From: a bacterium
GTDB lineage: Bacteria > UBA8248
DNA: 64,000 nucleotides
Assembly: GCA_965203325.1 (NCBI GenBank)
Contig: OZ241875.1
Coordinates: 3,840,001 to 3,904,000 of the forward strand
Direction of reading: 5' to 3'
In this document: positions 10,682 through 31,690 of the stretch, piece after piece
How the letters are laid out: each line of letters begins with the position of its first letter
Position numbering within the stretch: position 1 is the stretch's first letter
Translations under genes and position numbers: made by a program
The notes under the pieces: generated by a model
The model's input: only the letters and a program-made list of their open reading frames with translations
What the model was told of the DNA's origin: nothing
The model's database searches: none

Positions 10682-10684
10682 GGA

Positions 10685-14692: not shown

Positions 14693-16036
14693 GAGTTACT
14701 CTCAGATCTAGTTTATGGCCTGAATTGAAGAAGGCGGCACATTCCTGCTGAACCAGTGTTGTCAGAAGCCCGTACATTCAGCACATAGGAAATGCTCCAC
14801 CATACACAAAGATACGACGCTTCCCTTTACGAATCCAGCCTTTCGAAACGAGTTGAGCGAACTGGTGCGCGAGGGCGCGCAGCGAATCATCCGCCAAGCT
14901 GTGAAAGCGGAGTTGGAGGCCTTTCAGGAAGAGCATTCTACCAAGCAAGACACGCGAGGCCGTCGCAGGAGGTTTTGGCGGGTGTCGGTCCAGTGCGGTT
15001 TCGTGTTCCCCGGACGCGGGACAGGAGCGGGGCGGGCCGGTGTTTCCGCTCGGAGTTGTTGCCGCCGTATTTGAAGAATACGAGGCGGGTGGAGGCGGTT
15101 TTACCGTGGCTGTACCTGAAGGGGATATCGACGATCGACTTCGGTGAGGCGCTCACGGCGCTGCTCGGTGAGTCGGTGAAGGGTTTGTCTGCGGTTACGA
15201 TTGCGCGGCTCAAGGGCGGCTGGGAGCGCGACTACACGCAGTGGCGCGAGCGGGACTGGTGCGGGGAGGAGTTCGTGTATCTGTGGGCGGACTGCATCTA
15301 CGTGAACGTGCGCAGCGGGGAGCAACGTTGTCTACTGGTGGTTGTGGGCTGCCACGCGCGTGGCCACAAGCACTTCCTGGCCCTGGAGGCAGGGTTCCGT
15401 GAATCGAAGGAGAGTTGGAAGGCGGTGTTGTTGAGTTTGCGGGACCGGGGCGTGAAGGCGGCGAAGCTGGCGGTGGGCGACAGAGGGCTGGGGTTCTGGT
15501 CGGCACTGGCCGAGATGTATCCCGAGACGCGGGCGCAGCGCTGCTGGGTACACAAGACAGCGAACGTGCTCGAGAAGTTTCCCAAACGCATTCAGGACGA
15601 AGCGAAGACGATGCTGCACGAGATATGGCGGGGCCAACACCCGGATGAATGCACACAAGGCGCTCACACGCTTCCTCGCCATTTGGGAGGCGAAGTACCC
15701 GAAAGCCGCCGAATCCCTGGCGAGGTACCAGGAGGAACTGCTCGTCTTCTACGACTTCCCGGCGGCGCACTGGCAAAGCCTCCGGACGCCGAACCCCATC
15801 GAGTTGACCTTCGCCACGATACGTTTGCGAACGGCGAAGACCAAGAATTGTCTGAGCGAGAAGACGGCGCTGAGCATGGTTCACAAACTCGCCATAAGCG
15901 CCGAGAAGCGATGGTGCCGGCTACGCGGCTTTCGTCATCTGACCGACGTGAGGTTCATCAATGGGGTGAACGAAAAAGAACGGGCAGGAGGACCGCTGGC
16001 TTCAGGACGGCCATACACAAGATTTGACCGTAACTC
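14693..16036 (+). mobile_element. Degenerate IS256-family element (frameshifted transposase)
   Basis: Ends gagttac..gtaactc; transposase split over frames 14853-15074, 14792-16027 and 15645 onward; WADC replaces WADG. Confidence 0.9.
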
Positions 16037-16040
16037 ACCA

Positions 16041-18458
16041 TCAATCTTTTGGTGCCATAGCTATACTAGTTTCGATGCGACGTTCGTAGTAGGCGATTTG
16101 TCGACTGATATCGGGATCTCCTACATTTTCTTCGGCTGTTTTCATTTTTTGTATCGCATCGTTAAATGTATCCAAATCTTTCTTTCGTTTGAATATTTCA
16201 ATTCCAATGTCACAGTAAGTAGATAACATATGCTTGTTTCCTGGATACCTATTCACACCGCTCACCGCTAATTCTCGTGCTCGATCAAGAATTACTAGAC
16301 GATCTTCATCCATAAGACCAGGCGCGTTTTTCGCACGCTCAAGAAAAAGGATTATCCGGTAGCGGTACACTGGCCCATCTTCACCAAAATCCTTGGAAAA
16401 AAGTCTAATCTCAGCTTCCGCTTCCTCAAATTGCCTCATGTCAATTAGGTTCTGAATCAAACGATGACGTGGTACTCTTTCCCCTGGAGCAACGGAGATC
16501 ATTTTTGCGAGCAAGCGATTTTGCTTGTGGCGATCTGCTATACGTCGGATACCAGTATTAACGCTGCAGAGTTGACGAAGTGTTCTCACTTCTATGTCAT
16601 AAATTGGATTAAGTGCACTAATAACCTGTTCGTATAAGTCAAAATAATTTTCCGTTTCGGCAAATTTATAATCGGCTATTATTTCCATGATTACACCGTG
16701 ACGCCCTCGCCAGCCGTAAATACCATCCCGCTCATTGACCACATACTCGCGGACGATTCCGTCCAAATGATCGAGAACAGCTGATATAGTTGTCATGTTT
16801 ATTCCTAATAAGCGAATTATCAACTGCCTGTGGACTCGTATTCCAGAACTTTCGAGTGCAGCCACGATCTTGTATATATCTTGATATTCTGAAGCGAGTA
16901 ATGCGTACTCACGCAAAAGAATGTCATCGAATTTCTCGGTCGCAAAAATGTTTTTAAGGCAGACAAACACATCTCGCTCACACCGTTCTTCAAGGCGGCG
17001 GCGCTGCTCTCCGGCAGAGAAATCCAGAAAGCTAGTATGAACGAGTTCTCGAACTGGAGTGCTGGTCTCAACCAACCGCAAAAGTTCAGTGATTTCATTC
17101 GCATTTAATTTTTCTAGCTCATAAATTTTTGAATTCGAGAATAATGCCGCTGATTTTATTCGGTGGTTCCAGCGATTTCGAGCTGACGAAACAACCACTC
17201 TTAAGTTCTTTATATCTGCGGCCGAAAGGGACTCAAACAAAATGTTGATTTCATGTAAGTGGCTATCACTGTCATCAATAAAGATAGCGCCATTTTTTCC
17301 TTCTTTCTCCAAATTCTTAGCTACATTAAGCCATTCATTGTGAAGAAGTTTATGATCTGACTTGTGTTCCCATAAATAGAAATTTCTCTTGGCTAAACTG
17401 TGCATGATTTGGCGCGCTGTAGTGGTTTTTCCAACGCCACCTGCTCCTAAAATAATTACTCCAAAGTGTTCGTTTTCGATAAGTTGCTTTTCTGCAATCT
17501 GTACTAAAGATCGCATGAACGTATTTCCAGAGGCTATGTCGCCGTAACTAGCCGGCCACCCGTTAAACATTTCACTTACGCGTGGAGGAAGTTGCGAACT
17601 ATGATGTACGTCTATTGTAATTGGAGAGAGGTAACGAGAGGCATCAAGCGGATCACTAGATTCTTCATATGCCGTGACTAAGTCAGGACCATGTTTAGTG
17701 AGGGATGCCGCAAATTCATCAATCCCAGCAAAGCACACTTTGAGTCCACGGATTTCATGCAGTTCAGCCCTTTCTTTGTTGGGAGTGTACATAAAAAGGT
17801 AAGTTGAACGGATGTTCATTGCCTGTTTACTGATAGATAATGCACGATTTACAATCTCTCTGATATATGGATCTGCCAAGGAATATCCGATAATAATTAA
17901 ATCCGCCCCTGCCAAATCTCGTTTTAATGAATCATAAAGATATTCTCGATATTCTTCGGTCAAGCTATAATCATTCTCGGTAATAATTAGCCGTGTCTTA
18001 CTTCCATCAGAAACGTCTTCTTCAATGCTGCCATGCAGTTTCATAAGCCGTAGTGAATTAGGCAACTTATCGGCATCGAAATCAAAATTTGATGCGTATA
18101 CTGCCAATGGTTCATTAAATCGCCCAAACGCTTGCTCAAGTAAATTGTCATAATTTGTTGTATAAATACTCTTCCATTTGAAGCGCGGAATAGTGAGTAA
18201 ACCACCAGTAGGCTCAATCCCAACAAAGAGTTCGCGCACGGCCTTAATCAAGTCCACTCGATTTCGACGTCTCTCTATAATGGCTGAAAGTTCGGGCAGA
18301 TTCAGGTCACTCGATTCGAGATCAAAATGTTGGGCAAGATGGTCACAGATTTGCATTGTACTTGGGGCACCAGATGGGATTGAAGAACCAGAGCCAAAAA
18401 GGAGTACTGTTTGTTCTGGATTGATTTCACTAACTAGTTGATCAATGGGAATTGGCAT
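16041..18458 (-). CDS. SIR2-STAND NTPase-TPR antiviral protein (Avs-like NADase)
   Basis: LFGSGSS, YTTNYD, KLHGS and IGYSLAD (SIR2_2); GAGGVGKTT Walker A; IFIDD Walker B; helical C-terminus; AT-rich; probable start MPIPID at 18458. Confidence 0.85.
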   Translation of the reverse strand: MPIPIDQLVSEINPEQTVLLFGSGSSIPSGAPSTMQICDHLAQHFDLESSDLNLPELSAIIERRRNRVDLIKAVRELFVGIEPTGGLLTIPRFKWKSIYTTNYDNLLEQAFGRFNEPLAVYASNFDFDADKLPNSLRLMKLHGSIEEDVSDGSKTRLIITENDYSLTEEYREYLYDSLKRDLAGADLIIIGYSLADPYIREIVNRALSISKQAMNIRSTYLFMYTPNKERAELHEIRGLKVCFAGIDEFAASLTKHGPDLVTAYEESSDPLDASRYLSPITIDVHHSSQLPPRVSEMFNGWPASYGDIASGNTFMRSLVQIAEKQLIENEHFGVIILGAGGVGKTTTARQIMHSLAKRNFYLWEHKSDHKLLHNEWLNVAKNLEKEGKNGAIFIDDSDSHLHEINILFESLSAADIKNLRVVVSSARNRWNHRIKSAALFSNSKIYELEKLNANEITELLRLVETSTPVRELVHTSFLDFSAGEQRRRLEERCERDVFVCLKNIFATEKFDDILLREYALLASEYQDIYKIVAALESSGIRVHRQLIIRLLGINMTTISAVLDHLDGIVREYVVNERDGIYGWRGRHGVIMEIIADYKFAETENYFDLYEQVISALNPIYDIEVRTLRQLCSVNTGIRRIADRHKQNRLLAKMISVAPGERVPRHRLIQNLIDMRQFEEAEAEIRLFSKDFGEDGPVYRYRIILFLERAKNAPGLMDEDRLVILDRARELAVSGVNRYPGNKHMLSTYCDIGIEIFKRKKDLDTFNDAIQKMKTAEENVGDPDISRQIAYYERRIETSIAMAPKD

Positions 18459-18678
18459 TCTAGTTGTTGTCCTTTTATCCTCGTGCCCACGCCTAGAATA
18501 GAAAAAGGGGATTGAAGTACGTGTGCAAGTTGCTTCTTCATTCAATGCCCATCATCAATTTAATCCATTTTCAAACCAAGTCCAAGTCACACCGTTATTT
18601 GCCATTTTTTGGTTTCACATGCCAATTCAATTGAGCAAGTGATGTATATAATTCCCTAAATTTTTCTTAGTCAATGGA

Positions 18679-18760
18679 ATGGCCGAGAGCTTCTTCGCCA
18701 CGCTGGAGTAAAAACTCATCGATCGAAGTTCGTTCTACACTTAGGCCGAAGCGCGTATAA
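18679..18760 (+). pseudogene. Tiny IS3-family integrase fragment
   Basis: MAESFFATLE*KLIDRSSFYT*AEAR. Confidence 0.65.
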
Positions 18761-18954
18761 GGGTATCCACACTGCTAGCCTCGTGTCTCGTTTATAAGTT
18801 CATCGTCGCTGTGATCGACTACGCCGCACGTGCGAATGAGAAGCGAACCCTTGGTGCCTGAATGAACGTTGCCAGACACTGGAACGTAGTCATGATTAAG
18901 CCGCTTCGAGCTGGATTTTAGAGGTCGATCCGACAGAAGTATACGTTCGGTCGC

Positions 18955-19240
18955 GGGGTGATGAGCATCAAAAATCCACCGACCCAAACCGGATACCACG
19001 TGCCATACCAACAACTGCCTCTGAGTCTTGCTGCATTATCACCCCACCAGCGAACGGTTACCGACAGAAACGTACCAGGCTACGCAGAAGTTTGGATTCG
19101 CCCGCTTCCGTTTTGATTACTTATTACAGAAAACAAATCCCCAACGAAACTCGCAAAAAACAAACTATCCATAACAGTTTCAACAAACTACAAGGACTCC
19201 ACCCCCGCTGAAAACCCCCCACCGCCTGAAAACACGCGAA
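18955..19240 (+). repeat. Module-boundary element, copy B, with an upstream ~110-bp segment shared with 31377-31487
   Basis: ggggtgatgagcatcaaaaat..gtgccataccaacaactgcctctgag; then ccgcttccgttttgattac..aacagtttcaacaaa..ctgaaaacacgcg. Confidence 0.8.
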
Positions 19241-19822
19241 ATCTCTTGTCGATGTCGGTTCCACCGGAAGGACTCCCGCGGCCGTACACGCCACCACGGC
19301 ACCGACGCACGGCGACCCCGCCCGCTGCACCACCTGGCCGATAATGCGAGTGCCGCAGTATCGTCGTTCACCCTAGGGATGCGCAGGTTCGCGTGCTCCT
19401 CGCCCTGGGCGTTACGATGCGTCACACGGAAAGGGTTGCCGACCTCCGCTGACCATCCCTACCAGCGCATGGTTCCGCGCAGCGCAACCCCGACTACGGG
19501 TTCATCGCTGTTATCTGTCTCGCGCAAGTTGCCCTCGATGCTCATGGTAAGATGTCGCCCGAGCCTGAAGCGTCCGACGGCGCGGTACGTCCGGCCGCCC
19601 TACGATACCGAGAGGCCGCCATAGGGCGTTAGCACACATCGGTAGGCGTCCAGGCCGTAGCCGACTTCCGCTTCTAGACTCGCGCCGGGGTCGAACGCCC
19701 CTCGGGAGAGGCCCGCCACTTGCACCGAGCAGAGGCGCTCCGCACTGTCAGAAACCGCGCCCAAGCGGTCCACCTATTGTGGCTTTCAGGCCCGGCTATT
19801 CGACAGGGACTCGATTTGGTCC

Positions 19823-20980
19823 TCATCCATTGAGGATCTGACCAATGTTTTCACCTTCGAACCAATGAATTTCATTCTTATGCGCTTTCGCGTGCCGCAA
19901 CCGATACAGAACCTCCGGTAGATTCGTATCCCTCGCGAACGGATTGACGTATAAACAGTTGTGTACGTGATGCAAGTTCCACGGAGCGAGGTCCCGAAAC
20001 ATCAAGACGGCGGAAAGCCGTTTGTAGCGCGGTTGGTATCCGCCCCGGATCCAGACTGCGTCCGGCTCACGACCAAGTTCCGGCGAGAGATCAGGGCGGC
20101 CTTCGAAATAGACGATCTGCTCTTTGCCGAACAACGTCTCCAATTCATCGTCTTTATCAAAAAAGGGATCGCATATATTCACCGCCACCACAAGCGGCGC
20201 ATCAAGTTGGCCGTATTTACTTGCCTTATCCAGTATTGCATGCCGAACTGGAGTGGAGTCGTCGGTTACTTCAGTGCGAGCGGGGCCTTTGACGAGCGGT
20301 CGGGACTTGCCATCACCTCGCTTGCCAGGAGCTATCGGTTCAAGCCATCCTCTCAAGCTCCAGGATCCGGACTGAATCGTTCGAAAAGGCGCGGCAAATG
20401 GCCCTGCCACGTCAATCAGGCGTTGAACTTCGTCAGGGTCGTGGGCCGCAAGCAGGTCGATGAACGGCTGAACCACTTGTTTCCGGCTCAAGGCGGTCGA
20501 TAGCTTCCCCTCTACTTGCGTAAAGATATGGAAGTGCGGAGAACTCAGGCTATTGATTTTCGCCACAACGTCTTCTTCCAGTGGATTGCGGGCAAAAGGA
20601 CTCGAGCTGAGATCAATGGCTTTTGTTTCAACATAGAAAGTAAAGTCGCCGTGACGAACCAAAAAGTCCGGTCGCGAGCCCGTGCAGGAAACGTCGGGAT
20701 GCACCTTCACCTTACAATCTAAGCGAGTGAGCAATTCATGGATGAATAATTCAAAAATTGATCCTCGATGACCTCGATCATCTTTTGCGCGAAACCTTCC
20801 CCGAACATCATCGCGAGCCTCGACCGGGAATCGCTGAAACCACGATTCGAGTCGAGCGCGAATCTCGGTTGCCTTGTGATGCGCAGATCGGTTCAGATAT
20901 GAAAAAAACCTTTCATTTTTTTGTCTTGAACTCGTGTCTGTTCGCTTTATGTCATCGAAGAGAGAGAGGCGAGTGGTCAT
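19823..20980 (-). CDS. Hypothetical PD-(D/E)xK nuclease-like protein
   Basis: FELFIHELL..SRPDFLV..YVETK; ATG overlaps the stop of the hsdS remnant. Confidence 0.65.
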   Translation of the reverse strand: MTTRLSLFDDIKRTDTSSRQKNERFFSYLNRSAHHKATEIRARLESWFQRFPVEARDDVRGRFRAKDDRGHRGSIFELFIHELLTRLDCKVKVHPDVSCTGSRPDFLVRHGDFTFYVETKAIDLSSSPFARNPLEEDVVAKINSLSSPHFHIFTQVEGKLSTALSRKQVVQPFIDLLAAHDPDEVQRLIDVAGPFAAPFRTIQSGSWSLRGWLEPIAPGKRGDGKSRPLVKGPARTEVTDDSTPVRHAILDKASKYGQLDAPLVVAVNICDPFFDKDDELETLFGKEQIVYFEGRPDLSPELGREPDAVWIRGGYQPRYKRLSAVLMFRDLAPWNLHHVHNCLYVNPFARDTNLPEVLYRLRHAKAHKNEIHWFEGENIGQILNG

Positions 20981-21120
20981 GATTTGGTCTTTCCAATGAA
21001 ATGCTCAGCATCATTCACCCGCAATTCTACCGACACGAGTTTCGGCAGCAGGGTATCACGCAGGGCGGTGAGGGCACGATATTCCGCAATGTTGGACTTT
21101 ATTACAGCATCAAAGGACCG
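20977..21120 (-). pseudogene. hsdS: Type I restriction specificity subunit C-terminal remnant
   Basis: ALTALRDTLLPKLVSVELRV is the conserved HsdS C-terminal helix; truncated at the IS1111-type end. Confidence 0.75.
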
Positions 21121-21345
21121 TGAATGGACGCGCCCCAAAATGCAAGCCTTGTCTTGGACAGTTCGGCGCAATACAGTCTGGCTCAGTCGTGTATTCGGCC
21201 TCTCGATTGCGGTGCTTCATCCTGGCCGCGGTCCCGTATGGAGATGCGAGGACCGGGGCCATATCGCTTACGCGAACTTGAAAGGTCTCCGTTCAGCTCT
21301 TGGTTTGCTTGCTCCCGTCTCGATGACCGTAAGTGGACGTACATG
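21121..21345 (-). mobile_element. IS1111 (IS110 family)-type 3' noncoding end without transposase, copy 1
   Basis: Minus strand ends gcttgcattttggggcgcgtccat; shares cgcgtaagcgatatggccccggtcc and tctccatacggg with copy 2. Confidence 0.65.
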
Positions 21346-21452
21346 GACACCCACATAGGCTATATATACCCGCACTCGGCGAGTCGATGCAGACGAGCGT
21401 GGCATGATAGGATATATGGCCCGTGATCGGGAGCGGGTGAATCAGGGACAAC

Positions 21453-22505
21453 ATGAGGGATTCGTCGTCCATGATCGTGCCGAACAACGAGGGTAGGGTG
21501 TGCGACGCAGTCCTCAGGACCCTCGAAAAATGGACACGCGAGACGCGCTCGGATGTCCGTCATCCCGATAAGGAGGGAGACACTCCTCCCGTCGATCTGC
21601 GTCTGAAGCTCGGCTCCCGGGAATATGCGATTGAGCACACTCGGGTAGAGTCGATCGAAAATCAGATTACGACCGTGGTCGTCGCGAACCAAATCATCGA
21701 GCACATCAGAAAAGCTATCCCGGAGCCATTCTCAAGCCTGGCCTACTACGAACTGCAATTCCCAACCGACGTTTCCCTGCCCAAAGGCCGAGTCAAAAAA
21801 AGAGAACGAGCACTTGGTGATCTCGTCGAATGGCTCCACGCGAGCGAGAAAACCCTGCACGAGCGGAACTCCGGCCAAATCTTATCAATCCGCAATCCTT
21901 ATCGGTCCGATGATCGTATCCATGGAACCCCGCCGGGATTTGAGTGTGAATTCGAACTGCTGCAATGGCCGAGTGCACGGCTCGTGCAACGAAAGCCAGG
22001 CTCACTCTCGTTCAGGTTCATTCCTCCGGACGATATGGAGGGTCCGCGAGTGGGCAGTCTCCGGCATGCCTTGTCCAGGAAATGCCCCAAGCTTCAGGCC
22101 TGCAAGGCGGACGGCGCGCGTACCGTTCTGGTTTTGGAAAGCGGTGACCCGGGCCTTACGAGCTTCGAATTCCGCGAAGACCTTCTTCCTTCACTGCTAT
22201 CAGCGTGCACAAATACGCCGGACGAGATATTCCTGGTGGAAACCCGCAGAGAACGCTGGTCGGTGCAGTTGCTCAAGCGTGACGAGGCCCATTGGCCTGA
22301 CACCGGAATGCCCGAAATGGGCGGTCTCTACTACGACCCCGCTCCATCGCCCCTGCCGGGTATACCCGAATGGCTTGACAGCTTTCCCCAGGGGATGCGC
22401 TACGCCTTGCAACTGGACCACATGTATACGCCCTTCTTGCCGGGGTGGGCTCCTAAAACCTTCGAGAAAGGCGAATTGTCCGATCTGACGGCAACACCGG
22501 CGTAA
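21453..22505 (+). CDS. Hypothetical restriction-endonuclease-fold protein
   Basis: PPVDLRL..YAIEHT (PD..ExT variant), KCPKL..TVLVLES. Confidence 0.55.
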   Translation: MRDSSSMIVPNNEGRVCDAVLRTLEKWTRETRSDVRHPDKEGDTPPVDLRLKLGSREYAIEHTRVESIENQITTVVVANQIIEHIRKAIPEPFSSLAYYELQFPTDVSLPKGRVKKRERALGDLVEWLHASEKTLHERNSGQILSIRNPYRSDDRIHGTPPGFECEFELLQWPSARLVQRKPGSLSFRFIPPDDMEGPRVGSLRHALSRKCPKLQACKADGARTVLVLESGDPGLTSFEFREDLLPSLLSACTNTPDEIFLVETRRERWSVQLLKRDEAHWPDTGMPEMGGLYYDPAPSPLPGIPEWLDSFPQGMRYALQLDHMYTPFLPGWAPKTFEKGELSDLTATPA

Positions 22506-22534
22506 CCACCATGCCCGAACAATCATCGAAAGAC

Positions 22535-22755
22535 GTGTAAGGGAAAATGGTCAATCAGACAGGAACGGGAAAATCCGGGCATACGAAGAACTCTCAAGCT
22601 CGCGTAAGCGATATGGCCCCGGTCCGCGTATCTCCATACGGGCTCGCGGCGAGTAAAAAAACGTAAAAGAGAAGCCGGACATACGGCTGTACCTGATCAC
22701 CAACCTCGAAGTTTTCAAAAGACTTGCTTGCATCAACTGGCGCGTCCACATATGG
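22535..22755 (+). mobile_element. IS1111 (IS110 family)-type 3' noncoding end without transposase, copy 2
   Basis: gccggacatacggctg..gcttgcatcaactggcgcgtccacata; inverted homolog of 21121-21345. Confidence 0.65.
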
Positions 22756-22929
22756 TTTGTTCTACTTGTCGAGAAATGGTGCCCCAAACTTCTTCACGGG
22801 ATTGGAGACAAACTTGATCGCGGTCGGAAACATGGGCATCGCCGAGCGTGTCACGATATCTTGTCAAAGTTGGCAGACACGAGTAAGGACGAATCGTAAT
22901 TCAACAGTACGATCTGGAGCGGAGGACAA

Positions 22930-23943
22930 GTGAAGCCGAAGTTTGATCCTGCTGAATTTGTTCGACGCGTTGGGCGCGATTTGGTGAGTTCCTTTGAGTC
23001 TGCACGTGAAGCCACTACACCTGGGCTTGTCGGGGGCGCAATCGAAAATGCGGTTCGGAACCGACTAGAGCAGATACTACCGAGAGGAATCGGCGTAGGC
23101 ACCGGCTGCGTGATTGATATTCACGGAGGCACTAGTCGTCAAATAGACGTCGTTTTGTACGAGAAAGAACTGTGCCCAAGATTCTCCGTTAATGAGAATT
23201 CAGAGACAAGTTATTTTCCTGTGGAATCTGTGCTCGCCGTCGGTGAGGTCAAGAGTGTTATCGGGAAAGTGGAACTTAATGACGCTTTCAAGAAAATCGC
23301 TTCCGTGAAATCGCTCTATAGATCATTTGAGAAGATGGATGGCAACGTGTATGTAGGCAGGCGGTATAGCGATAGTGGTTCTGCAACAGCACTTGGGTTT
23401 TATCGAGATAATACCAACTTGGGTGATGTCCTTGGATTCGTACTGGCAGAGAGATCTAATATCACCATAACCTTGCCCGACCCCTCGAAGACACACAAGT
23501 CCGCTCCGAAGGCAACACTCTTGGGGCATTACGTTGAGAATGTAACAACGCTAAACAACGATGTGCTGTGTCCTGATACGGTAGTCTTTCTTGATGGTAC
23601 TGTTTTGGTTCCTTATGCGGCGAACGGATTGACTCCTTATGTAGCCGCCAGAGTGCGAAATGTGCTGCCACATCTTATTCATCCAGTTAAGGCCGATTCG
23701 CCATTCGGAGAACTCATCAAGACAATTTGGAAGCGACACCGGGAAGGAATTACAGCACACATACCACTAGAGAGATACCTGCACTTCGAAGCTAAGACGG
23801 AACCGAAATTGACGTGGGCCGTGATTGCCAATTTTCACCAACCGGACCAAAATGAACTGAAGGTGGGGGAGCGATTAGAAATCACGACACCGACCGACCA
23901 CCTTAGAAGTGATTTGCAGTATCTGGCGAGAAATAGAACATAG
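22930..23943 (+). CDS. DUF6602-like restriction-endonuclease-fold protein
   Basis: GGAIENAVR, GCVID..SRQIDVVLYE, FPVESVLAVGEVKS. Confidence 0.75.
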   Translation: MKPKFDPAEFVRRVGRDLVSSFESAREATTPGLVGGAIENAVRNRLEQILPRGIGVGTGCVIDIHGGTSRQIDVVLYEKELCPRFSVNENSETSYFPVESVLAVGEVKSVIGKVELNDAFKKIASVKSLYRSFEKMDGNVYVGRRYSDSGSATALGFYRDNTNLGDVLGFVLAERSNITITLPDPSKTHKSAPKATLLGHYVENVTTLNNDVLCPDTVVFLDGTVLVPYAANGLTPYVAARVRNVLPHLIHPVKADSPFGELIKTIWKRHREGITAHIPLERYLHFEAKTEPKLTWAVIANFHQPDQNELKVGERLEITTPTDHLRSDLQYLARNRT

Positions 23944-24210
23944 CCGAGTTTGTACACCGACTTTGTAAGCGGCGGCAGTTTGATGGTCGTGCCAAAACCA
24001 GTGCAAGCATGAAATCCTGACCGAAAGGAGTTGGACCAAACCCGTGTCCTCAGCACATCGGTAGTAACAGGATATACAAGAAATCCCGATGAATAAGTAG
24101 CATTCTCACCGACCCTAGCGAGACATTGGCCCACATCGTTAACTTTGACTCAGGAGAGCCTGTGGTCCGCTCTATCACCTCACGAGCGAACGCTTATCGA
24201 CAAACACCCG

Positions 24211-24375
24211 CCGGGATACGCAGGAGTTGTAATTCGCTCGCATTCGTTTTGATTACTTGTTGCGGGAGGTGGATTCCGAACGAGACCCGGGGGAAATGAA
24301 TGCTTCTCAATGATATCAACGGGATCAGGGGATTTTACTACCGCCGGAAGTCCTCCACCCTCTGAAAACACGCGG
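24211..24375 (+). repeat. Module-boundary element, copy C
   Basis: ccgggatacgcaggagtt..cgttttgattactt..ctgaaaacacgcg. Confidence 0.7.
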
Positions 24376-24464
24376 GAGAGCGGGATGCGCGCCCCCTCCC
24401 GCCGGGAGGGGGACCGCGATGAAGCGGGCCGGGAGGAACGGCCTGCGCCACCCCCGGTCCGCCC

Positions 24465-27400
24465 CTACCACCGCTTCGAGCCTTTGAGCAGGAGGCCGCC
24501 TTCGGGTCTCCCGCCGCCGGCCTGTTCGGTGAGGCTCGCCTCGAGGCTCACCTCTGTGGCCGCCCCGGGCTTCCACCGCGCGCCAGCGCGCCAGGTCTCC
24601 CCGGACCCTGTGACCGCCACGCCCGTATAGGGCGTCAGCAGCCCCCGCGGGGCGTCCAGACCCCAGGCCGCCTCGGCCTCGAAACCCGCGGCGCCCGGCT
24701 CGAACGCACCGCCCGGCGAGAGGCCCGCCGCCTGCGACCAGAGCCGCTCCGCACCGCCGGTGGAGGCGCCCCACGAGGAGCCCGCCCGAAGCGTGAGGCC
24801 CCGTCCCCCGGAGCCCGGAGCGTACGCCACCGAGGCGCTCACGCCCCATTCCTCATAACCGCTCTCGCCGTGGGAGAGCAGGCTCCGCGCGCGCAACTCC
24901 GTCGTCAGGGCCCCCGAGGCCCAGCGGACCGAGCCGCCGGCCTCCACCCCGCCGCCCGTCTCCGCGTCGCCCGAATCGTTCCGGAACCCTATCTCCAGCG
25001 AGGGCGTCAGCACCGCATCGCCGAACCTGAGCGAGCGCGAACCCTCCAGCACGAGGCGCACGCGGCTCGTCTCCGCCTCGGTCTCCGCCAGGCCCGCCGC
25101 AGCGTCCGAGCGCGTGTTCGTCACCAGGACGTCCGCGCGAAGCGCGAGCTCGAACCCGCCCGCCTCGCGCGCGGGCAGAACGACCCCGCGCGCCCCGGCC
25201 GCCGCCATGCCCATCGCCACGTCGGCCTCCACCGGGGACGACCCCCCGGGCGTGAGCGTCATCTCCCCCTGCCCGTGGCCCACAGCGCCCCAGAGCGAGA
25301 ACGTCCCGCTCACACGGTAGCGCGCGTAGGGGTAGACGCCCGTCAGGGCGCTCTCCACCTCGCCCGCGCAGCCCGTATCGCACGCGCCGCCCGCCTTGTA
25401 CGAGCCGTCGCCCGAACTCCGCGAGAGCGCCACGCCCACCAGCCAGCGCGCCCGCTCGTAGTCGAAGCCCACGGTCGCCGTCGTCACGTCGCCCTCCAGC
25501 GAGAGATCGCCCTCGGCGCCCTCGAACGAGGAGCGCGCGCCCCGGCCCCACAGCGACCAGCGCGAGCCGGCGTCCCCGCCGCCGGCCGAGGCCATATGAA
25601 ACGAACTCGCGAGGAGGAGGTCGGACATCGCGACCTCGCGCACCGAAGGCGCTTGCGCCTCCCCGCCGCGCCCGAGCCGGACCTCCCTCTCCTTGAGGAG
25701 GGCCTCGGCGAGGCGCGACTCGATGGCCTCGCGCTCCGCCTTGCCCGTGAGGCTGTGGCCGCCCAGCACGACGCCCGCGGCGGCGCCGCCCGAAAGGCGT
25801 CCGTCAATCGCCTCGGCGACGTGGCCCGCCGCCGCGCGCCCGAACCGCGCCAGCCACATCGCCTGCAGCGGGTCCTCGTTGCGGATGACCCCCTTCGCCT
25901 TGCTGTGCACGTTCCTGAGATACGCGCCCCGCGGGTTCGAGAGCAGAAGCCGCATCGTCTCCTTGCCCTCGTCGATGGCGTCGTCGAGCACCGGCACCGA
26001 GACCGTCTTCGCCGTCTCGCCCGCCGCAAAGGTCAACGTGCCCGAGGTGGCCGTGTAGTCCGCCCCCGCCGTCGCCGTGCCGTCCTCGGTCGCGTAGTCC
26101 ACCGAGACGTCATGCGCCGCCGCGCGGTTGAGCGTCACCGCGAAGTCGAGCGATTCGTCCTTGCCCTCCTTCGCCCTGGCGCCCTCGATGCGGATGCGCA
26201 CCGGGCCGCCGATGGTTGCCGACGCACTGTTCGACAGCGCCCGTCCGTCGGCGGTGCAGATTGCCCCGGACACGGCGCAGTCCGCCGGCTGGAGGAGCGT
26301 GATCGTCACGTCCTTCCAGGCGTTGGCCTTCTTCGGCGTCACAGTCACGGTGTACCGCGTGCCCGACCCGCTGACGCTGGCTTTCCCCGGCGCCACCTTG
26401 AAGGAGGCCGCCACCGGCAGGTTGCCGGCGCCCGGCGCCTCGCTCAGCGTGAGGTCGAAGGTGAACGCCGTGCCGTCATGCTCCGAAGGAACGTTCTCGA
26501 ACGCCGCCGTCAGCGGCTCCGTGCGCTGCTGCTGTTGTTGCTGCGCCTGCTGCTGCTGCGCCGCCTGCCGCGTCACCGTGACCTCGTAGGTCTTCTCCAC
26601 GCCCGTCCCCGCCGTGGTCTTCACCACGAGAACGTTGGCGCCGACCGCCAGCGCGACCGCGGGACCGGACCCGCCGCTCCGCACACGGGTCAGCGCCGTG
26701 CCGCTGCCCGCCCGGAGCGTCAGGTCCTCGTCCGCCGTCGCCGGCACAAGCCGCGCATGCGTCGTCCCGTGCGGCACCGTCACCGCATACGCCGTCGTCT
26801 CCGCCGCGAACGCGCCGAGGTCCAGCTTCGCCCACGGCCCGCCGGCGCCCGGGGCGCCCTCGACCGACAGCCCGTCCAGATGCGCCTCGTCGTTCAGGAT
26901 CTCGACCACCGCCCGGCCGTAACCCGGCGCGATGGTTGCGCCCGACGGGTTCGACAGCACCACATAGAACGTTTCCCCGCTGTCCTCCACGTCGTCGTCG
27001 AGGACGTAAAACTGCACCTGTTTGCGCGTCTCGCCCGGCGCGAAGGTCACCGTCGAGGGAGCCATAGAGTAGTCCGCGTCCAGCGTCGCCGTGCCTTCCT
27101 CCGACGTGTAGTACACCGACACCGGGCTTGTCGACGAGCGGCTGAGCCAGAACGTAATGTCGTGGCCAGAGAGGAAATTATTGTCATCCTCGCGCCCCGC
27201 GGCGGGCCACGCGCCCACCTGCACCGCGCCGCCGTCGTCGCTCACGGTGACGAAGACGCCCTCCGTCCCGTCCGCGCTCCCGTAGTCGGTGTCCGTGCTC
27301 GAGACCAGGGCCAGGATCATCAGGTGCTCGTGGTCGCCGTCGCTGTCCTGCACCCCGGTGACGGTCACCGTCTGGGCTTGACTCCAGTTGGTCGACGTGA

Positions 27401-29399
27401 AGGTCAGCGTCGCCGGGCTCACCGTGGCGGCGTTCGCGTCGCCGGACGCCCCCTGCAGGACCGATTTCACCAGGTTGACGGTCACGTTTGCCGAGGGCGC
27501 CCTGGACAGCTTGACCCCGAAGGTCGCGGAGCCGCCCTCCGGGACGATCAGATCGTTCCGTCCCGTTTCGGAGCTGGGCACGAAGCTGGTGCTCTCGAAC
27601 TCCACGCCGGTCCACGGCGTGGCGGTCAGGCGGACCTGGACCCGCTGGCCGGCGGACCAGGTGAGACCTGTATTGGTCCACTCCGTTGCTAGATTAGTGA
27701 GGTAGTTCCCCTTCGCGAGAGGAAACGACTTCCCGTCGACATACAGCGTCAGCCTTCGCCAATGCCCGGTGGCCTGTCTTATCGCTGTGCCATATTCCAG
27801 ACTCAGTTCCACGTTTGCGTCATCAGTATCAATGTAGAGCCGTTCGAGCGTATTCGCAGTTCCCTCATGCGTAAAGCTGTTGGTCGTCAGCGCAGCACTG
27901 CAGTTGGGCACAGGAGCGTACGTGTTATCGCAACCGAAGAAACGCCCGGTTCCGCCCACCGTCAGCGTGGCGGTCAGGAGTGTCTGCTCGCCGAACGACC
28001 CAAGCCTCGACGGCCCGACGGGGTGCGGCCCCGTCGGTTCGGCCGTTGTCTCCGGCTCGGGCTTCGTGCCCAATGTCGTGGCCCGTGCCACGGCCGACCA
28101 CTGGCCGGCGACGCCGCTGGTCATCACGCGCAGCCGCACGTCGTACGAGGTGCCGCGCTTCAGGCCCTTCGGCTTGTCACGCAGATACGGGCCCCTTATG
28201 ACCGCGCTTTTCTTCCTGATGTCCAGCACGTAGCTGTGCGGCGCGAGTCTATGCTCGTAATCTATCCAGCCCCGCGCCGGGTCGGCCCCGGTCAGCCGGT
28301 CCTCCTGGTCGGGGGCGTCCGATTCCTTGTACTGCAGCTCGTAGCTGTTGCCGGGCGTCGACCACGATGCCGTCAGACGTTGATCGCCCGGCACCAGCGT
28401 CGGTGCCGGCGGCGAGGTGCCCGGCTCCAACCTGGTTATGGTCACGGTGTAGTCCATCATCGATATCAAGTCATCGGCGACCACCCGCACCGGGATGACG
28501 TTGGCCCCCACGCTGAGCGCGATGGCCGGGCTCGCCGAGCCGCTAGCCACACCGTCCGTCGACACCAGGGCCGTCGGCGCCTCGCCTGCTATGCCCACCA
28601 ATATATGCGCGAAATCACCTTTATCCTTCTGGGTTGGCGTGAGCTTCACATGGGTGATCGTGTTGGCCACCGTGGCCATGTAGCTGGTCGTGGCCGCCAA
28701 GAAGCGCGGCGTCAGCGTCAGAGCCGTAAACGTGCCCGAGGCGCTCGTGGAGCTGCTGGCCGTCAGCCCGGTCAGATCCGCGTCCGTGGACCGAGCTGCC
28801 GGCGCCTTGTTGGTCACCGTGACCCACGAGCTAGCCCGGACGTCGCTTTGGCCGGGTCCTTTGGAAAATGCCTGTATGCGGAGGTCGTAGGAGGTCCCGT
28901 TGGTAACCGTATGGCTTGAGCCGCCGGCGTCAGACTGCAGCCCAGTGAACGTTAACTGAGTGTCGCTGTGGACGGGCTCCCGAATTGTACCACTGTCCTG
29001 TACTGGTGCCCAAGCGGTTGCTTGGGCAGTGCTAAGCTTCCACTCGACTCGATAGCCAAACGCTGACCAAGTGCCCCAGGAACTGGGGGCCTGCCAATTC
29101 AGGATGAGCTGTCCGTCGTCGGCGGTGACGCTGACGTTTCGCGGCACCGAGGGCGAGGTCACCTGTGCGGCGGCGGGGTCGGCGGCGAACGGCGAGAGCG
29201 CGCCGAGCAGCAGAGCGAAGACGGGAAGAAGGGAGAGGAGGCGGGCGCGGGCGCGCCCGGTGCGGGCGTCAAGCCTGCGCGGGCCTGCCGATGTCGAGGG
29301 AGCCGGCGTGCGCGCCCCGGCCGGGCGCACTTCACGCCGCCGGGCCGCGACGCAGAGCGCCGCCGCGAGTAGCATCGGAATTCGTGCAATGTTCTTCAT
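24465..29399 (-). CDS. Autotransporter-type adhesin with FN3, cadherin-like beta-sandwich and Calx-beta repeats
   Basis: Extended signal peptide; FN3 (LNWQAP..YRVEWK, YDVRLR); Calx-beta (VDYATEDGTATAGADY..LTFAAGET..VLDD); C-terminal beta-barrel ending in W. Confidence 0.85.
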   Translation of the reverse strand: MKNIARIPMLLAAALCVAARRREVRPAGARTPAPSTSAGPRRLDARTGRARARLLSLLPVFALLLGALSPFAADPAAAQVTSPSVPRNVSVTADDGQLILNWQAPSSWGTWSAFGYRVEWKLSTAQATAWAPVQDSGTIREPVHSDTQLTFTGLQSDAGGSSHTVTNGTSYDLRIQAFSKGPGQSDVRASSWVTVTNKAPAARSTDADLTGLTASSSTSASGTFTALTLTPRFLAATTSYMATVANTITHVKLTPTQKDKGDFAHILVGIAGEAPTALVSTDGVASGSASPAIALSVGANVIPVRVVADDLISMMDYTVTITRLEPGTSPPAPTLVPGDQRLTASWSTPGNSYELQYKESDAPDQEDRLTGADPARGWIDYEHRLAPHSYVLDIRKKSAVIRGPYLRDKPKGLKRGTSYDVRLRVMTSGVAGQWSAVARATTLGTKPEPETTAEPTGPHPVGPSRLGSFGEQTLLTATLTVGGTGRFFGCDNTYAPVPNCSAALTTNSFTHEGTANTLERLYIDTDDANVELSLEYGTAIRQATGHWRRLTLYVDGKSFPLAKGNYLTNLATEWTNTGLTWSAGQRVQVRLTATPWTGVEFESTSFVPSSETGRNDLIVPEGGSATFGVKLSRAPSANVTVNLVKSVLQGASGDANAATVSPATLTFTSTNWSQAQTVTVTGVQDSDGDHEHLMILALVSSTDTDYGSADGTEGVFVTVSDDGGAVQVGAWPAAGREDDNNFLSGHDITFWLSRSSTSPVSVYYTSEEGTATLDADYSMAPSTVTFAPGETRKQVQFYVLDDDVEDSGETFYVVLSNPSGATIAPGYGRAVVEILNDEAHLDGLSVEGAPGAGGPWAKLDLGAFAAETTAYAVTVPHGTTHARLVPATADEDLTLRAGSGTALTRVRSGGSGPAVALAVGANVLVVKTTAGTGVEKTYEVTVTRQAAQQQQAQQQQQQRTEPLTAAFENVPSEHDGTAFTFDLTLSEAPGAGNLPVAASFKVAPGKASVSGSGTRYTVTVTPKKANAWKDVTITLLQPADCAVSGAICTADGRALSNSASATIGGPVRIRIEGARAKEGKDESLDFAVTLNRAAAHDVSVDYATEDGTATAGADYTATSGTLTFAAGETAKTVSVPVLDDAIDEGKETMRLLLSNPRGAYLRNVHSKAKGVIRNEDPLQAMWLARFGRAAAGHVAEAIDGRLSGGAAAGVVLGGHSLTGKAEREAIESRLAEALLKEREVRLGRGGEAQAPSVREVAMSDLLLASSFHMASAGGGDAGSRWSLWGRGARSSFEGAEGDLSLEGDVTTATVGFDYERARWLVGVALSRSSGDGSYKAGGACDTGCAGEVESALTGVYPYARYRVSGTFSLWGAVGHGQGEMTLTPGGSSPVEADVAMGMAAAGARGVVLPAREAGGFELALRADVLVTNTRSDAAAGLAETEAETSRVRLVLEGSRSLRFGDAVLTPSLEIGFRNDSGDAETGGGVEAGGSVRWASGALTTELRARSLLSHGESGYEEWGVSASVAYAPGSGGRGLTLRAGSSWGASTGGAERLWSQAAGLSPGGAFEPGAAGFEAEAAWGLDAPRGLLTPYTGVAVTGSGETWRAGARWKPGAATEVSLEASLTEQAGGGRPEGGLLLKGSKRW

Positions 29400-29508
29400 T
29401 TGAAATGCCCCCTGTTCCGAGATTTCGGGTTCAAGCTGACGCAGCCGGTCGTGAATCTTTCCGCGAGAGGCGGATTCCTGCGGTATGCGCCACCTCGAAC
29501 CCCGGCTG

Positions 29509-29720
29509 GTGTCCGCTAATTGACGTTATCGGACAACGTAACACCTCTCACGGCCATGTCAAGCCCGATTCCAGGGTCCCCGGAGGGGTTTCGGGCGCCG
29601 TTTTGCGCCTTTTTTCGCTTATATTTCGCTCATTTGCGGCCCGAATGCGCCCCGAAACGGGTTTTTCAGCGGAAAACGGGGCTTCTGGGGGCCAATAACG
29701 TCAATTATCGGACCCCAGAA
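29509..29720. other. Pair of inverted tyrosine-recombinase core sites
   Basis: gtccgctaa-TTGACG-ttatcggac (29511-29534) and ggccaataa-CGTCAA-ttatcggac (29690-29713); the spacers are reverse complements. Confidence 0.75.
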
Positions 29721-29826
29721 ACCCGCCGTTTCGCCGGTATTCGCCTGCGAAACGGCTTTTTTTGTGGAAATTCCCCGTCGTCGTCCATACTCGGCAATCA
29801 AGGAGGCGCTCGGGCGGCCCCAAGGA

Positions 29827-29990
29827 ATGGAAACGGCCGCCGATCTGGCGAAGGCGTCGATGTCTGAGAACACGCGACGGGCGTACGGGACGGCGCTCAG
29901 GGTATTCGAGCGCTCGGGAAACCCCGAGACCGACGCCGGGATAGCGGCGTACCTGGGGGATCTCTACGAGGGGGGCACTCAGCGGCTGTG
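29827..29990 (+). pseudogene. Cre/TnpS-like tyrosine recombinase N-terminal remnant
   Basis: ASMSENTRRAYGTALRVF..IAAYLGDL; no catalytic R-H-R-Y region follows. Confidence 0.65.
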
Positions 29991-30110
29991 GCCGCGATGG
30001 CGAGGCTGCGCTACGGGCGGTGAGGTCCGCCCGGCGTTTCGTCGTGAGCATGTCCTTCGCTGCGGGCAGGTCCGCCGCGTGCAGGACGCCGGTTTCTCCC
30101 GAATATCTCT

Positions 30111-31376: not shown

Positions 31377-31690
31377 GGGGTGATGAGCATCAAAAATTCG
31401 CCGACCCGAATCGGATACGCCGTGCCATACCAACAACTGCCTCTGAGCCTTGTGGTATTATCACCCTGCCAACGAACGATTTACCGGTCTTCGACGACTC
31501 GCGCCCCTTGGAATGCTCCGGGGTTGTAATGAGTCCGCTTGCGTTTTGATTACATTTATTTCAAGGAATTTATAACTGGTTTGAAAACAATGATTTAATT
31601 TTCATATTCTGGATAATACGATAAATTCACGGGGTTTTTCGATAAATTCCTGAAAAATAATGTACAGATAAATGATTGTAATCAAAAGGG
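31377..31690 (+). repeat. Module-boundary element, copy D, at the island/core junction
   Basis: Segment shared with 18955-19063; ccgcttgcgttttgattac; 11-bp inverted repeat ttttgattaca (31544-31554) and tgtaatcaaaa (31677-31687) around AT-rich DNA. Confidence 0.7.

Follow-up and report, generated by a model that had tools for sequence, protein, structure and literature searches.

What is formed when two transposase-free noncoding regions of IS1111 type bracket a single nuclease-like gene in inverted orientation? An initial annotation of the sequence suggested (i) a non-autonomous, RNA-guided cargo unit mobilized in trans or (ii) a pair of orphan guide RNAs with different target loops, and a third candidate is (iii) the decayed residue of ordinary insertion sequence (IS) copies. 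The locus lies in a stretch of 64 kb, which is referred to as a whole as the window; its parts, with the two noncoding regions called the left and right arms, are as follows.

20977-21120, minus strand: C-terminal remnant of hsdS (type I restriction specificity), ~47 codons and the stop, abutting the left arm; from tblastn.
21121-21345, minus strand: left arm, an IS1111-type 3′ noncoding region (NCR) with right end; from alignments with the family.
21124-21136: outer subterminal inverted repeat of the left arm, ATGGACGCGCCCC, read from the sequence; its motif is also found at the ends of the related element ISx.
21453-22505, plus strand: ORF350, an intact gene of 350 amino acids; its family has no name, and its fold is probably PD-(D/E)xK (restriction-endonuclease-like).
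22526-22752, plus strand: right arm, an IS1111-type 3′ NCR with right end; from alignments with the family.
22739-22749: outer subterminal inverted repeat of the right arm, GGCGCGTCCAC, from the sequence and a repeat search; the IS-derived part stops at 22752.

The arms are inverted homologs, as initially annotated, with the limits of the right copy moved from 22535-22755 to 22526-22752. Two inverted pairs are recovered by a repeat search, one of 71 nt (21222-21292 and 22583-22653, 87% complementary) and one of 23 nt (21125-21147 and 22726-22748, 78% complementary). Pairwise alignment likewise upholds the description of the arms as sharing the strings TCGCGTAAGCGATATGGCCCCGGTCC, ATCTCCATACGGG, GCTTGCAT, and GGCGCGTCCA and as differing in their 5′ parts; the tails also differ. 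The right limit is marked by a contig with another IS copy (run X3), which leaves the window sequence exactly at 22752, and the right arm begins ~20 nt past the ORF350 stop. The left arm is truncated at its 5′ side, where it has lost the first ~44 alignment columns and, with them, one half of a closing helix predicted for the family. At the outer boundaries, ATGGACGCGCC at 21124-21134 agrees with the complement of 22739-22749 in 10 of 11 positions, so that both ends of the unit carry subterminal inverted repeats whose motif is also present at the left and right ends of ISx. Outward of the left-arm repeat lie a 3-nt extension of right-end type and then CG. ORF350 is the sole long open reading frame between the arms in the ORF list, again in line with the annotation.

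The assignment of the arms to IS1111 is borne out by their homology to the NCR that lies directly 3′ of an IS110-family transposase gene in elements with subterminal inverted repeats. Such repeats are present in ISx, which is 1400 nt long and occurs as two identical intact copies elsewhere in this genome; its transposase scores 326.9 bits against a cut-off of 140 for the NCBIfam model “IS110 family RNA-guided transposase” and contains the Pfam domains PF01548 and PF02371 (DEDD transposase). Both arms align lengthwise with the ISx NCR, at an identity of only 71-75%. In sister genomes, IS elements match the left arm with their 3′ ends (E 2.5e-60), ISx of the same genome matches it at E 4e-29, and the right arm matches ISx at E 5e-9; the similarity is therefore real and not a product of chance. 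The family is common in this genus. Among 19 loci in sister genomes, all 16 NCR matches that cover more than 230 model positions are directly 3′ of a transposase match, as are 7 of 7 further full-length NCR matches. Transposase-less NCR fragments are found elsewhere in the genus (G012 L133 and G014 L118) and in the genome that holds the window, G000 (2054323-2054402 and 1014676-1014767).

The arms are indeed transposase-free, since a tblastn search of the 64-kb window with the ISx transposase returned no match; between them, ORF350 belongs to no Pfam family at E ≤ 0.01. Nor does the unit (21121-22752) contain an IS left end, which in this family consists of a CGATGGG extension and a ~70-nt leader: a hidden Markov model (HMM) of 8 family left ends has no match at 21300-21460. 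The same model detects ISx and other genomic copies at E 4e-19 to 4e-6, its best window matches have E values of at least 1.5, and its sole nearby match is the repeat itself (21122-21135, E 8.1). The left terminus of the unit is of right-end type, with a 3-nt extension in place of the conserved CGATGGG, sequence that is tracked by a family guide segment. One candidate for a left-end remnant upstream of ORF350, GTAAG/TGGACGTACATGGACACCC at 21330-21358, resembles a left junction by eye and would make 21335-22752 an IS-like unit of 1418 nt; it was dropped as not significant, given that MAFFT does not align it to left ends and the left-end HMM (--max) does not match it. The complete unit was found only at the present locus in G000 and in none of 41 other genomes of the family. 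No Rfam family matches 18000-26000 at E ≤ 1.

The two arms derive from different IS subtypes. The tail of the left arm is closest to an IS of genome G022 (84.2% identical) and that of the right arm to an IS of genome G016 (81.5% identical), and the two tails are 52.6% identical to each other compared with 89.8% for the core, a value no higher than the core identity of each arm with other family members. Both arms are also degraded relative to the transposase-linked NCRs, the right more so than the left. Changes at invariant columns amount to 9 of 92 in the left arm and 14 of 92 in the right, versus 0-4 in leave-one-out controls. The right arm has an HMM score of 119 bits, which is under the family range of 162-195 bits, and the left arm has a leave-one-out score of 162 bits, which is inside it. 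Broken predicted pairs number 12 of 42 in the left arm and 10 of 42 in the right versus 0-3 of 42 in 14 transposase-linked NCRs, these counts being based on a consensus predicted by RNAalifold from an alignment that includes both arms and shows almost no covariation. That consensus comprises two stems (columns 53-137 and 144-181), with double-sided changes in only 2 of the 42 pairs. MFE z-scores from single-sequence folding are near zero for both arms and the genuine ISx NCR (0.16, −0.04, and 0.68) and cannot discriminate, because the genuine NCR is itself near zero.

In the IS1111 group, NCR segments that match the target's top and bottom strands have been described for ISEc11, ISPa11, and ISKpn4 (Siddiquee et al. 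2024, PMC11187229). Comparative sequence shows that the guide segments of the present family likewise co-vary with the target. The left guide (an xxxxxCGAT segment) shares 8.0 of 10 positions with the left junction in cognate versus 5.8 of 10 in non-cognate combinations (11 elements), and the word that guide 1 shares with its own right flank measures 4-9 nt (mean 6.6) in 14 transposase-linked relatives versus a mean of 3.4 in non-cognate pairs. The arms do not follow this pattern: the idea that their target loops might match the present flanks fails, as the longest word shared with guide 1 is 3 nt for the left arm and 4 nt for the right, about the non-cognate level. The annotation had further described the target loops of the two copies as different, which holds for one guide and for the tails but not for the left-flank guide, which is identical in both arms (CGTAAGCGAT).

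As for the gene between the arms, ORF350 belongs to no Pfam, NCBIfam, or PADLOC family, and none of the 120 proteins listed among its 260 homologs bears a name. Its nearest relatives (P0001-P0013) are 78-95% identical to it and lie on contigs that range from 8 kb to 4.2 Mb; a neighboring protein of 385 amino acids is likewise without a PADLOC or NCBIfam family. The fold is probably PD-(D/E)xK, as judged from an AF2 model with a pLDDT of 81.9. The best structural match is PaqCI, with a Z of 8.2 and an rmsd of 4.0 over 130 residues (VIA-align), a Z range that can reflect a mere common arrangement; other top matches are BsmI, SfsA, MspJI, AspBHI, NucC, CdiA-CT toxins, and Hjc, and many PD-(D/E)xK nucleases fall within the top 50. 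Foldseek against the PDB gave no match at E ≤ 1e-3. Across 34 homologs, residues E13, E25, E61-H62-T63, K210, K213, and E229 do not vary, and neither does the YAIEHT motif; a canonical ExK triad was not identified, and the catalytic motif is not a textbook D…(D/E)xK. A sequence search of the PDB gave no more than weak matches to TAL-effector repeats (best E 8.7e-6, without a separately significant stretch) and matches to other, unrelated proteins.

Members of the ORF350 family are frequently found in defense-type neighborhoods. At 80 metagenome loci with ORF350 relatives (27-71% identity), there is no nearby NCR match (E ≤ 1) and no transposase match, and the flanks of these loci have no similarity to the window flanks. 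No conserved partner genes lie beside the relatives (39 neighbor proteins, 15 loci). The family is widespread and unnamed, with distant members free of IS association, and ORF350 is unrelated to the IS family of the arms. With a dN/dS of 0.27-0.49 among 5 copies, the gene is under purifying selection.

Four of these copies come from a second context, for which two further features are needed.

21224-22580, plus strand: unit U, consisting of ORF350 with the left arm's core and 5′ part on one side and ~55 nt from the start of the right arm on the other; from blastn.
29167-31553, minus strand: copy of repeat E without U, holding a 239-aa HTH_17/excisionase-like gene at 30111-30830.

Unit U (1.36 kb) recurs at 88-90% identity at 1997821-1999189 and 4227855-4229215 of G000 and at two loci of G012, the latter being the only loci that the ORF350 protein finds in sister-genome contigs. 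All four copies lie inside repeat E, which is abundant, and their junctions are identical (blastn; three-way alignment), from which a single capture event follows. Both arms are cut short in the E-embedded copies, where the right NCR no longer has its core and tail. Between copies, the left-arm part of U shows 79-82% identity, approximately the synonymous divergence of ORF350 (dS 0.14-0.22); the first 55 nt of the right arm fall within the 75 nt past the ORF350 stop and are 92-97% conserved between copies, above the ORF itself. In the repeat E copy of the window, 206 nt at 31286-31491 occupy the place that U has in other copies, and within them GGTAAA/TCGTTCG, the GGTAAATCGTTCG site, resembles the insertion site of this IS subfamily. 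No single inversion or excision was found that converts the arrangement of U in E into that of the window.

The annotation had noted that the left end cuts hsdS, and the left arm does abut a remnant of that gene: 47 residues from 21120 to 20980 on the minus strand, which represent the conserved C-terminal helix, match the C-termini of genes for “restriction endonuclease subunit S”. In a tblastn search of plasmids with this tail, 57 records matched (best E 1e-4), and 12 of 12 among the matches listed carry that name. The remainder of hsdS gave no tblastn match on the right flank. Pfam Methylase_S (PF01420) is absent from the window and matches the genome solely at 989033-990136, and the window holds just the hsdS tail; this remnant has no BLASTP match to the genome's own HsdS, which says little, since the two represent different subfamilies.

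The strain is present in sponge samples, and the same locus was found in three other metagenomes, X3, X4, and X5. An X4 contig spans 20001-24000 with 111 differences from the window, and X3 and X5 have the same flanks. In X5, one contig (depth 4.7) lacks 21116-21324, i.e., 209 nt with most of the left arm, through a joint from 21115 to 21325; the deletion is bounded by the direct repeat GACCGT.A.TGGACG (21116-21130 and 21325-21339; 6 nt exact, 13 of 15 overall). All contigs covering the region (X1, X3, X4, and X5) have one orientation.

Taken together, IS insertions and deletions have probably left a mosaic scar at the locus, which would then not be a mobile unit in working order. Here, two IS copies that differed in subtype may once have stood in divergent orientation, or their 3′ ends may have been brought in by recombination. 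From each, the 3′ NCR (the seekRNA/bridge-RNA region) and the right-end subterminal inverted repeat would remain, with the transposase genes and left ends lost. ORF350, a passenger with no relation to the IS and still under selection, lies between remnants that are decaying: predicted pairs and invariant positions have been lost, the guides no longer fit the flanks, and one related strain has deleted 209 nt of the left remnant between short direct repeats. A 1.36-kb sub-fragment with partial arms and ORF350 was captured once into repeat E, beside a site used by this IS subfamily, and would have spread passively with the repeat from there. This is close to the scenario that the initial annotation had set against its own proposal, namely two independent IS copies that later decayed, which fits best because the arm tails come from different subtypes. 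No relative with full IS copies still at this locus was found, and for this reason the history of two insertions followed by decay, including the order of events and the former presence of full copies, is one that we infer.

Several observations speak against a scar. Both deletions would need to end near the boundary between transposase and NCR, a coincidence that may point to the NCR as a modular unit. At its outer ends the 1.63-kb unit has proper inverted subterminal repeats, and its length approximates that of an ordinary member of the family (~1.4 kb). With 162 bits, the left arm is still inside the family HMM range, and the 75 nt past the ORF350 stop are better conserved (92-97%) than the ORF. 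The right arm, in the same orientation just downstream of ORF350, could be co-transcribed with it as the NCR is with the transposase.

Some of these features are shared by a reading in which 21121-22752 still works as a cargo transposon, IS1111-derived and non-autonomous, that a family transposase such as that of ISx would move in trans, with the passenger gene, its own seekRNA gene (the right arm) behind it, and the inverted subterminal repeats as bounds. This is unlikely, although trans-mobilization of cargo flanked by IS ends has been shown experimentally for ISEc11 (Siddiquee et al. 2024, PMC11187229) and the size is near that of ISx (1400 nt). Genome G013 contains an internally deleted derivative of the family in two copies of 1092 nt that are 100% identical, lack transposase residues 90-207, and have full copies alongside, which means that non-autonomous derivatives of this family do seem to move; the second context of ORF350 and arm parts in repeat E is also compatible with mobility. 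Of mobilization in trans of the 1.6-kb unit itself, however, there is no sign: it occupies one locus only, stable in X3, X4, and X5, and has no left end, its left terminus being of right-end type. Both NCRs are degraded, their identity to that of ISx is only 71-75%, and the guides match neither flank. Removal of the unit does not restore hsdS, and the E copies are truncated in both arms with a single set of junctions. A more specific version, to which a slightly smaller chance is given, holds that a nuclease-like gene of transposase size replaced the transposase in a natural IS1111-type derivative that retains a seekRNA gene and inverted subterminal repeats and is moved in trans by family transposases through two right-type ends, and that the E copies of ORF350 stem from transposition into GGTAAA/TCGTTCG. 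If movement of the unit were demonstrated, the locus would provide a natural case of a seekRNA-guided element that carries cargo.

About equally doubtful is the retention of one or both arms as orphan guide or regulatory RNA genes, which might redirect the ISx transposase, titrate it, or serve as sRNAs, and which need not be mobile. A proposal of this kind exists for ISPpu9 of Pseudomonas putida and its Ssr9 module (MITEPpu9), with transposase-less copies of an IS110-family-associated sRNA gene that are proposed to be selfish or regulatory (Pares-Guillen et al. 2025, PMC12288879). Intact ISx transposases in the same genome, the left-arm HMM score inside the family range, and the position of the right arm for possible co-transcription with ORF350, with its first 55 nt 92-97% conserved among U copies, would all suit such a role. 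It is opposed by the excess of invariant-column changes and the broken stems in both arms, by the loss from the left arm of the first ~44 columns with one side of the predicted closing helix, and by the strain that has deleted most of the left arm. In addition, no promoter-like site occurs in 20900-23000 (0 versus 1.3 expected), and only arm fragments are kept in the E-embedded copies.

A very improbable reading is that ORF350 can be inverted, or otherwise switched by recombination, through the action of a family recombinase on the inverted arms. The arms are homologous, inverted, and 89.8% identical in the core, and the Piv (DEDD) invertases count among the relatives of IS110/IS1111 transposases (Siddiquee et al. 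2024, PMC11187229), but the orientation is the same in the X1, X3, X4, and X5 contigs, no strand-changing joint is reported in contigs, which drop rare variants, and the two cores resemble each other no more than they resemble those of other family members. Least credible of all is an exapted RNA-guided nuclease that has taken over the IS guide RNA. A nuclease-like gene does stand directly upstream of a region of guide-RNA type, an arrangement of which five copies keep a part, but this is outweighed by the absence of NCR (E ≤ 1) or transposase matches near ORF350 relatives at any of 80 metagenome loci, by flanks at those 80 loci that share nothing with the window flanks, and by four E copies in which ORF350 is intact and selected without the core and tail of the right NCR.

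As a scar, the locus matters little in itself, and it documents the decay of IS1111-type elements to transposase-less guide-RNA remnants that can bracket host genes. Three by-products of the analysis that may be useful are (i) a genus-wide IS1111-type family whose left- and right-flank guides can be read from comparative sequence, (ii) a widespread, unnamed, nuclease-like family represented by ORF350, and (iii) repeat E, which is abundant and bears a site into which this IS subfamily preferentially inserts.

Close to the locus among known systems are the IS1111-group elements. Their long NCR, 3′ of the gene for a DEDD transposase, is homologous to the arms, which likewise finish with a subterminal inverted repeat and then a short extension at the terminus, and two short NCR segments of the family track the sequence to the left and right of the insertion point, as in the elements described by Siddiquee et al. 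(PMC11187229). Unlike in these, the arms are not downstream of a transposase, the unit has neither transposase nor left end, its two right-end modules face outward, its guides mismatch the present flanks, and its sequences are degraded compared with transposase-linked members. The locus also resembles MITEPpu9, the orphan ssr9 of ISPpu9 in P. putida KT2440 (Pares-Guillen et al. 2025, PMC12288879), in being a transposase-less module with an IS110-family sRNA region away from any transposase gene; ISPpu9 itself belongs to the IS110 and not the IS1111 group. MITEPpu9 is described there as having both end boxes (A′ and B′) and several near-identical copies and as forming circles, whereas the present locus is single, without a left-end box or further full copies, and its decayed-looking arms of different subtypes bracket a 1-kb gene. 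Finally, solo IS ends and internally deleted IS copies, the ordinary products of decay, share with the locus the partial IS sequence that is left after deletion, and what is unusual about the locus in comparison is that remnants of two different subtypes flank an intact, selected gene in inverted orientation, with part of the arrangement copied into another repeat.

The best-supported reading of the locus, and one that we consider probable, is a mosaic scar in which two decayed, transposase-less 3′ ends from different IS1111-type subtypes surround a selected passenger gene, ORF350.

Arms, passenger gene and associated repeats (window coordinates)
21121-21345, minus strand, left arm (limits set here)
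21453-22505, plus strand, ORF350 (350 aa)
22526-22752, plus strand, right arm (limits set here)
21224-22580, unit U: ORF350 with the left arm's core and 5′ part on one side and the right arm's first ~55 nt on the other
29167-31553, copy of E (another abundant repeat) without U; 206 nt (31286-31491) stand in U's place

A repeat search of the window recovers two inverted arm pairs: (i) 21222-21292/22583-22653 (71 nt, 87% complementary) and (ii) 21125-21147/22726-22748 (23 nt, 78% complementary). Pairwise alignment upholds the two inverted homologs of the initial annotation, with identical quoted strings and diverging 5′ parts and tails, and ORF350 is, as claimed, a lone nuclease-like gene, being the sole long ORF between them. 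Both arms align with the 3′ noncoding region (NCR, the seekRNA/bridge-RNA region) of ISx, an intact element of the same family in the host genome, as far as the right-end repeat, and both are outward-facing right-end modules; the left one lacks approximately the first 44 alignment columns. The window holds no match to the family's transposase or left end. The left tail shares 84.2% identity with an element in sister genome G022 and the right tail 81.5% with one in G016, against only 52.6% between the two tails. On these alignments, the tails derive from different IS subtypes, and the core common to both arms (89.8% identical) is simply the conserved portion of the family.

ISx is a 1400-nt element with two identical copies (20510-21909 and 1532504-1533903) recovered by searching the host genome (4.39 Mb in one contig) with the window region. 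Its 341-aa protein matches Pfam DEDD_Tnp_IS110 and Transposase_20 and scores 326.9 bits (cut-off 140) against the NCBIfam model "IS110 family RNA-guided transposase"; its long NCR sits 3′ of the transposase gene, and its subterminal inverted repeats are ATGGACGCC near the left end and GGCGTCCAT near the right end. A long 3′ NCR and subterminal inverted repeats are traits that Siddiquee et al. 2024 (PMC11187229) describe for the IS1111 group. Of the NCR matches at 19 fetched loci, all 16 that exceed 230 model positions sit immediately 3′ of a match to the transposase, as do 7 of 7 further full-length NCR matches. The IS1111 assignment of the initial annotation is therefore confirmed, the arms being homologous to the NCR of an element with an IS110-family transposase. 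Rfam contains no family matching the arms. The left arm matches 15 of the 42 genomes of the taxonomic family (host included), all in one genus, and these matches cover 14 of its 22 other species; the IS family is common in this genus. ISx is apparently located in a palindromic REP-like repeat (GTAGGGGaCGCATATATGCGtCCCCTAC; host positions 20450-20510, 21886-21909, and 1532300-1532330), similar palindromes lie close by in either flank, and 20409-20489 has matches at three other sites in the genome.

Two variable segments lie within a predicted large stem-loop of the NCR (columns 53-137 of the alignment of the arms with family NCRs). The 3′ segment (xxxxxCGAT) repeats the bases immediately left of the insertion, CG, and the first IS bases, and agrees with the left junction at 8.0 of 10 positions in cognate versus 5.8 of 10 in non-cognate comparisons (11 elements). 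The 5′ segment, once reverse-complemented, has a 4-9-nt word in common with the right flank, which begins 4 nt past the repeat (cognate mean 6.6 versus non-cognate 3.4; 14 elements). In the window arms, this second guide shares 3 (left) and 4 nt (right) with its own flank, which is the non-cognate level, and the expectation that target loops match the present flanks is not borne out. The proposal that the two arms carry different target loops holds only in part, as the left-flank guide is the same in both (CGTAAGCGAT). At L110, L114, and L120 (sister genomes G018, G004, and G020), family IS copies are inserted in the NCR tail of sibling copies; because the conserved GAGAGGCCGGAT of the family NCR is matched by their left-flank guide (GAGGTCGAT or GAGGCCGAT) and the family tail recurs in their right flanks (...ATACGAATGCGCCTGACC...), one subtype appears to target the guide-RNA region of its relatives. 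A cargo unit mobilised in trans has the inverted subterminal repeats, the IS-like length, and the apparent mobility of non-autonomous family derivatives on its side, but we give it little credence, given the absent left end, a left terminus of right-end type, guides that do not match the flanks, a single stable locus, and degraded NCRs. The derivative concerned is a likely trans-mobilised 1092-nt form lacking transposase residues 90-207, present as two 100% identical, internally deleted copies at different sites (L126 and L129) in G013 alongside three full copies.

U recurs at 88-90% identity at two further host loci and two G012 loci, embedded in E with identical junctions in all four. E carries a 239-aa HTH_17/excisionase-like gene, of which the host has 11 near-full copies (92-100% aa identity); HTH_17 is C-terminal in the protein, and the excisionase similarity is weak. 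The module spans about 2.4 kb or more and occurs, besides the window copy, at host positions 703k, 1030k, 1263k, 1825k, 1997k, 2080k, 2383k, 2587k, 3372k, and 4229k. Its 239-aa gene is followed in G012 (L014) by an intact 344-aa ORF resembling a tyrosine recombinase (motifs by eye) and in the host by fragments of a tyrosine-recombinase-like ORF; E may represent a family of small integrative elements. The right U/E junction has a 9-nt microhomology (AATCCGGGC), and E has GGTAAA|TCGTTCG ~12 nt from the left junction. In G022, an IS of the same guide type lies at precisely the equivalent point of an E-like repeat (22/22-nt anchor 54 nt upstream), and in metagenome run X3 an IS copy with a right-arm-like tail adjoins an E-like right flank (loose end at 22752). 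E seems to hold a preferred insertion site of the IS1111-type subfamily. An IS, or a window-type mosaic, would have entered E at this site, been trimmed, and later spread together with E. The left-arm part of U (79-82% identity between copies) is consistent with an absence of constraint because its divergence approximates that of synonymous sites (ORF350 dS 0.14-0.22). The five copies agree at 92-97% over the 75 nt past the ORF350 stop (22506-22580, 5′ part of the right arm), more than over ORF350 itself (89-93%) and far more than over the left-arm fragment.

Of 42 predicted pairs, 12 are broken in the left arm and 10 in the right, compared with 0-3 in 14 transposase-linked NCRs, the consensus structure being solely a prediction from an alignment that includes both arms. 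Departures from 92 invariant columns number 9 (left) and 14 (right) versus 0-4 in those NCRs (leave-one-out), and leave-one-out HMM scores are 162 and 119 bits, respectively, versus 162-195 for the family. Covariation hardly supports the predicted fold (2 of the 42 pairs), and MFE z-scores are uninformative, also for the ISx NCR. Retention of the arms as orphan guide or regulatory RNAs, comparable to MITEPpu9/Ssr9 (PMC12288879), is rated improbable.

To the left of the left arm lies an hsdS remnant (21120-20980, minus strand), which codes for the C-terminal helix of a type I specificity subunit; a tblastn search with it finds 57 plasmid records, the 12 listed all being annotated as subunit S. 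The right flank is not recognisable as hsdS and the window contains no Methylase_S domain; 21121-22752 is therefore not a simple insertion into a gene otherwise intact. Contigs of four public metagenome runs (X1, X3, X4, and X5), of which X1 probably represents the source sample, were aligned to 20000-24000. A 5.6-kb contig of X4, from another study, crosses the entire interval with 111 differences, and the same flanks are present in X3 and X5. In a single X5 contig (depth 4.7), 21115 runs directly into 21325, so that 209 nt of the left arm, bounded by direct repeats GACCGT.A.TGGACG (6 nt exact), are missing; because the more divergent E-embedded copies retain this part, the X5 form is read as a later deletion and ongoing decay. 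The contigs of the four runs, which cannot show rare forms, contain no reported whole-unit inversion or excision joint; an invertible switch is unlikely. Short E fragments (18955-19063 and 24209-24256) lie on either side of the locus, X4 has another right-arm-like NCR copy ~1 kb left of 20001, and the entire 19-31.5 kb stretch looks repeatedly rearranged. The surroundings look like a defence island (9194-12023, 16041-18545, 19823-20980, and 22930-23943), including (i) an 834-aa SIR2 and STAND NTPase protein, with ThsA-like SIR2 matches in PADLOC, (ii) a DUF6602 protein with NucC/PD-DExK-type matches, (iii) a Prok-E2_C and ThiF protein adjoining a Metal_CEHH protein, (iv) a 385-aa ORF without family that overlaps the hsdS stop, and (v) a Mutator-family transposase at 14792-16027. 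A 1644-aa minus-strand ORF (24465-29399) with Calx-beta, cadherin-like, and fn3 domains is a putative large surface or adhesin-type protein; the 940-aa ORF overlapping it on the opposite strand is probably spurious.

ORF350 matches no family in Pfam, NCBIfam, or PADLOC, and the 120 listed of its 260 homologs are unnamed and without a precomputed Pfam domain. Its AlphaFold model (pLDDT 81.9) has no Foldseek match; the best VIA-align matches are PD-(D/E)xK nucleases, with PaqCI on top (Z 8.2), followed by BsmI, SfsA, MspJI, NucC, CdiA-CT, and Hjc, which is suggestive, but not proof, of a PD-(D/E)xK-like nuclease. The gene is intact in all five copies with dN/dS of 0.27-0.49. Of 51 genomes of its small phylum, only the host (3 copies) and G012 (2 copies) carry it, which suggests horizontal acquisition. 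Across 80 metagenome loci, more distant relatives lack both an NCR match and a nearby transposase, and their varied neighbors often resemble defence genes (Patatin, WYL, Mrr, type I methylase, TIR, and helicases); the linkage to IS ends is thus local and secondary, and an exapted RNA-guided nuclease is unlikely.

For transposase-less IS110/bridge-RNA modules, the ISPpu9 paper (PMC12288879), supplements aside, was the sole relevant literature found by full-text search. Within the family, the way in which guides track flanks fits the top- and bottom-strand target matches published for IS1111 seekRNAs (PMC11187229).
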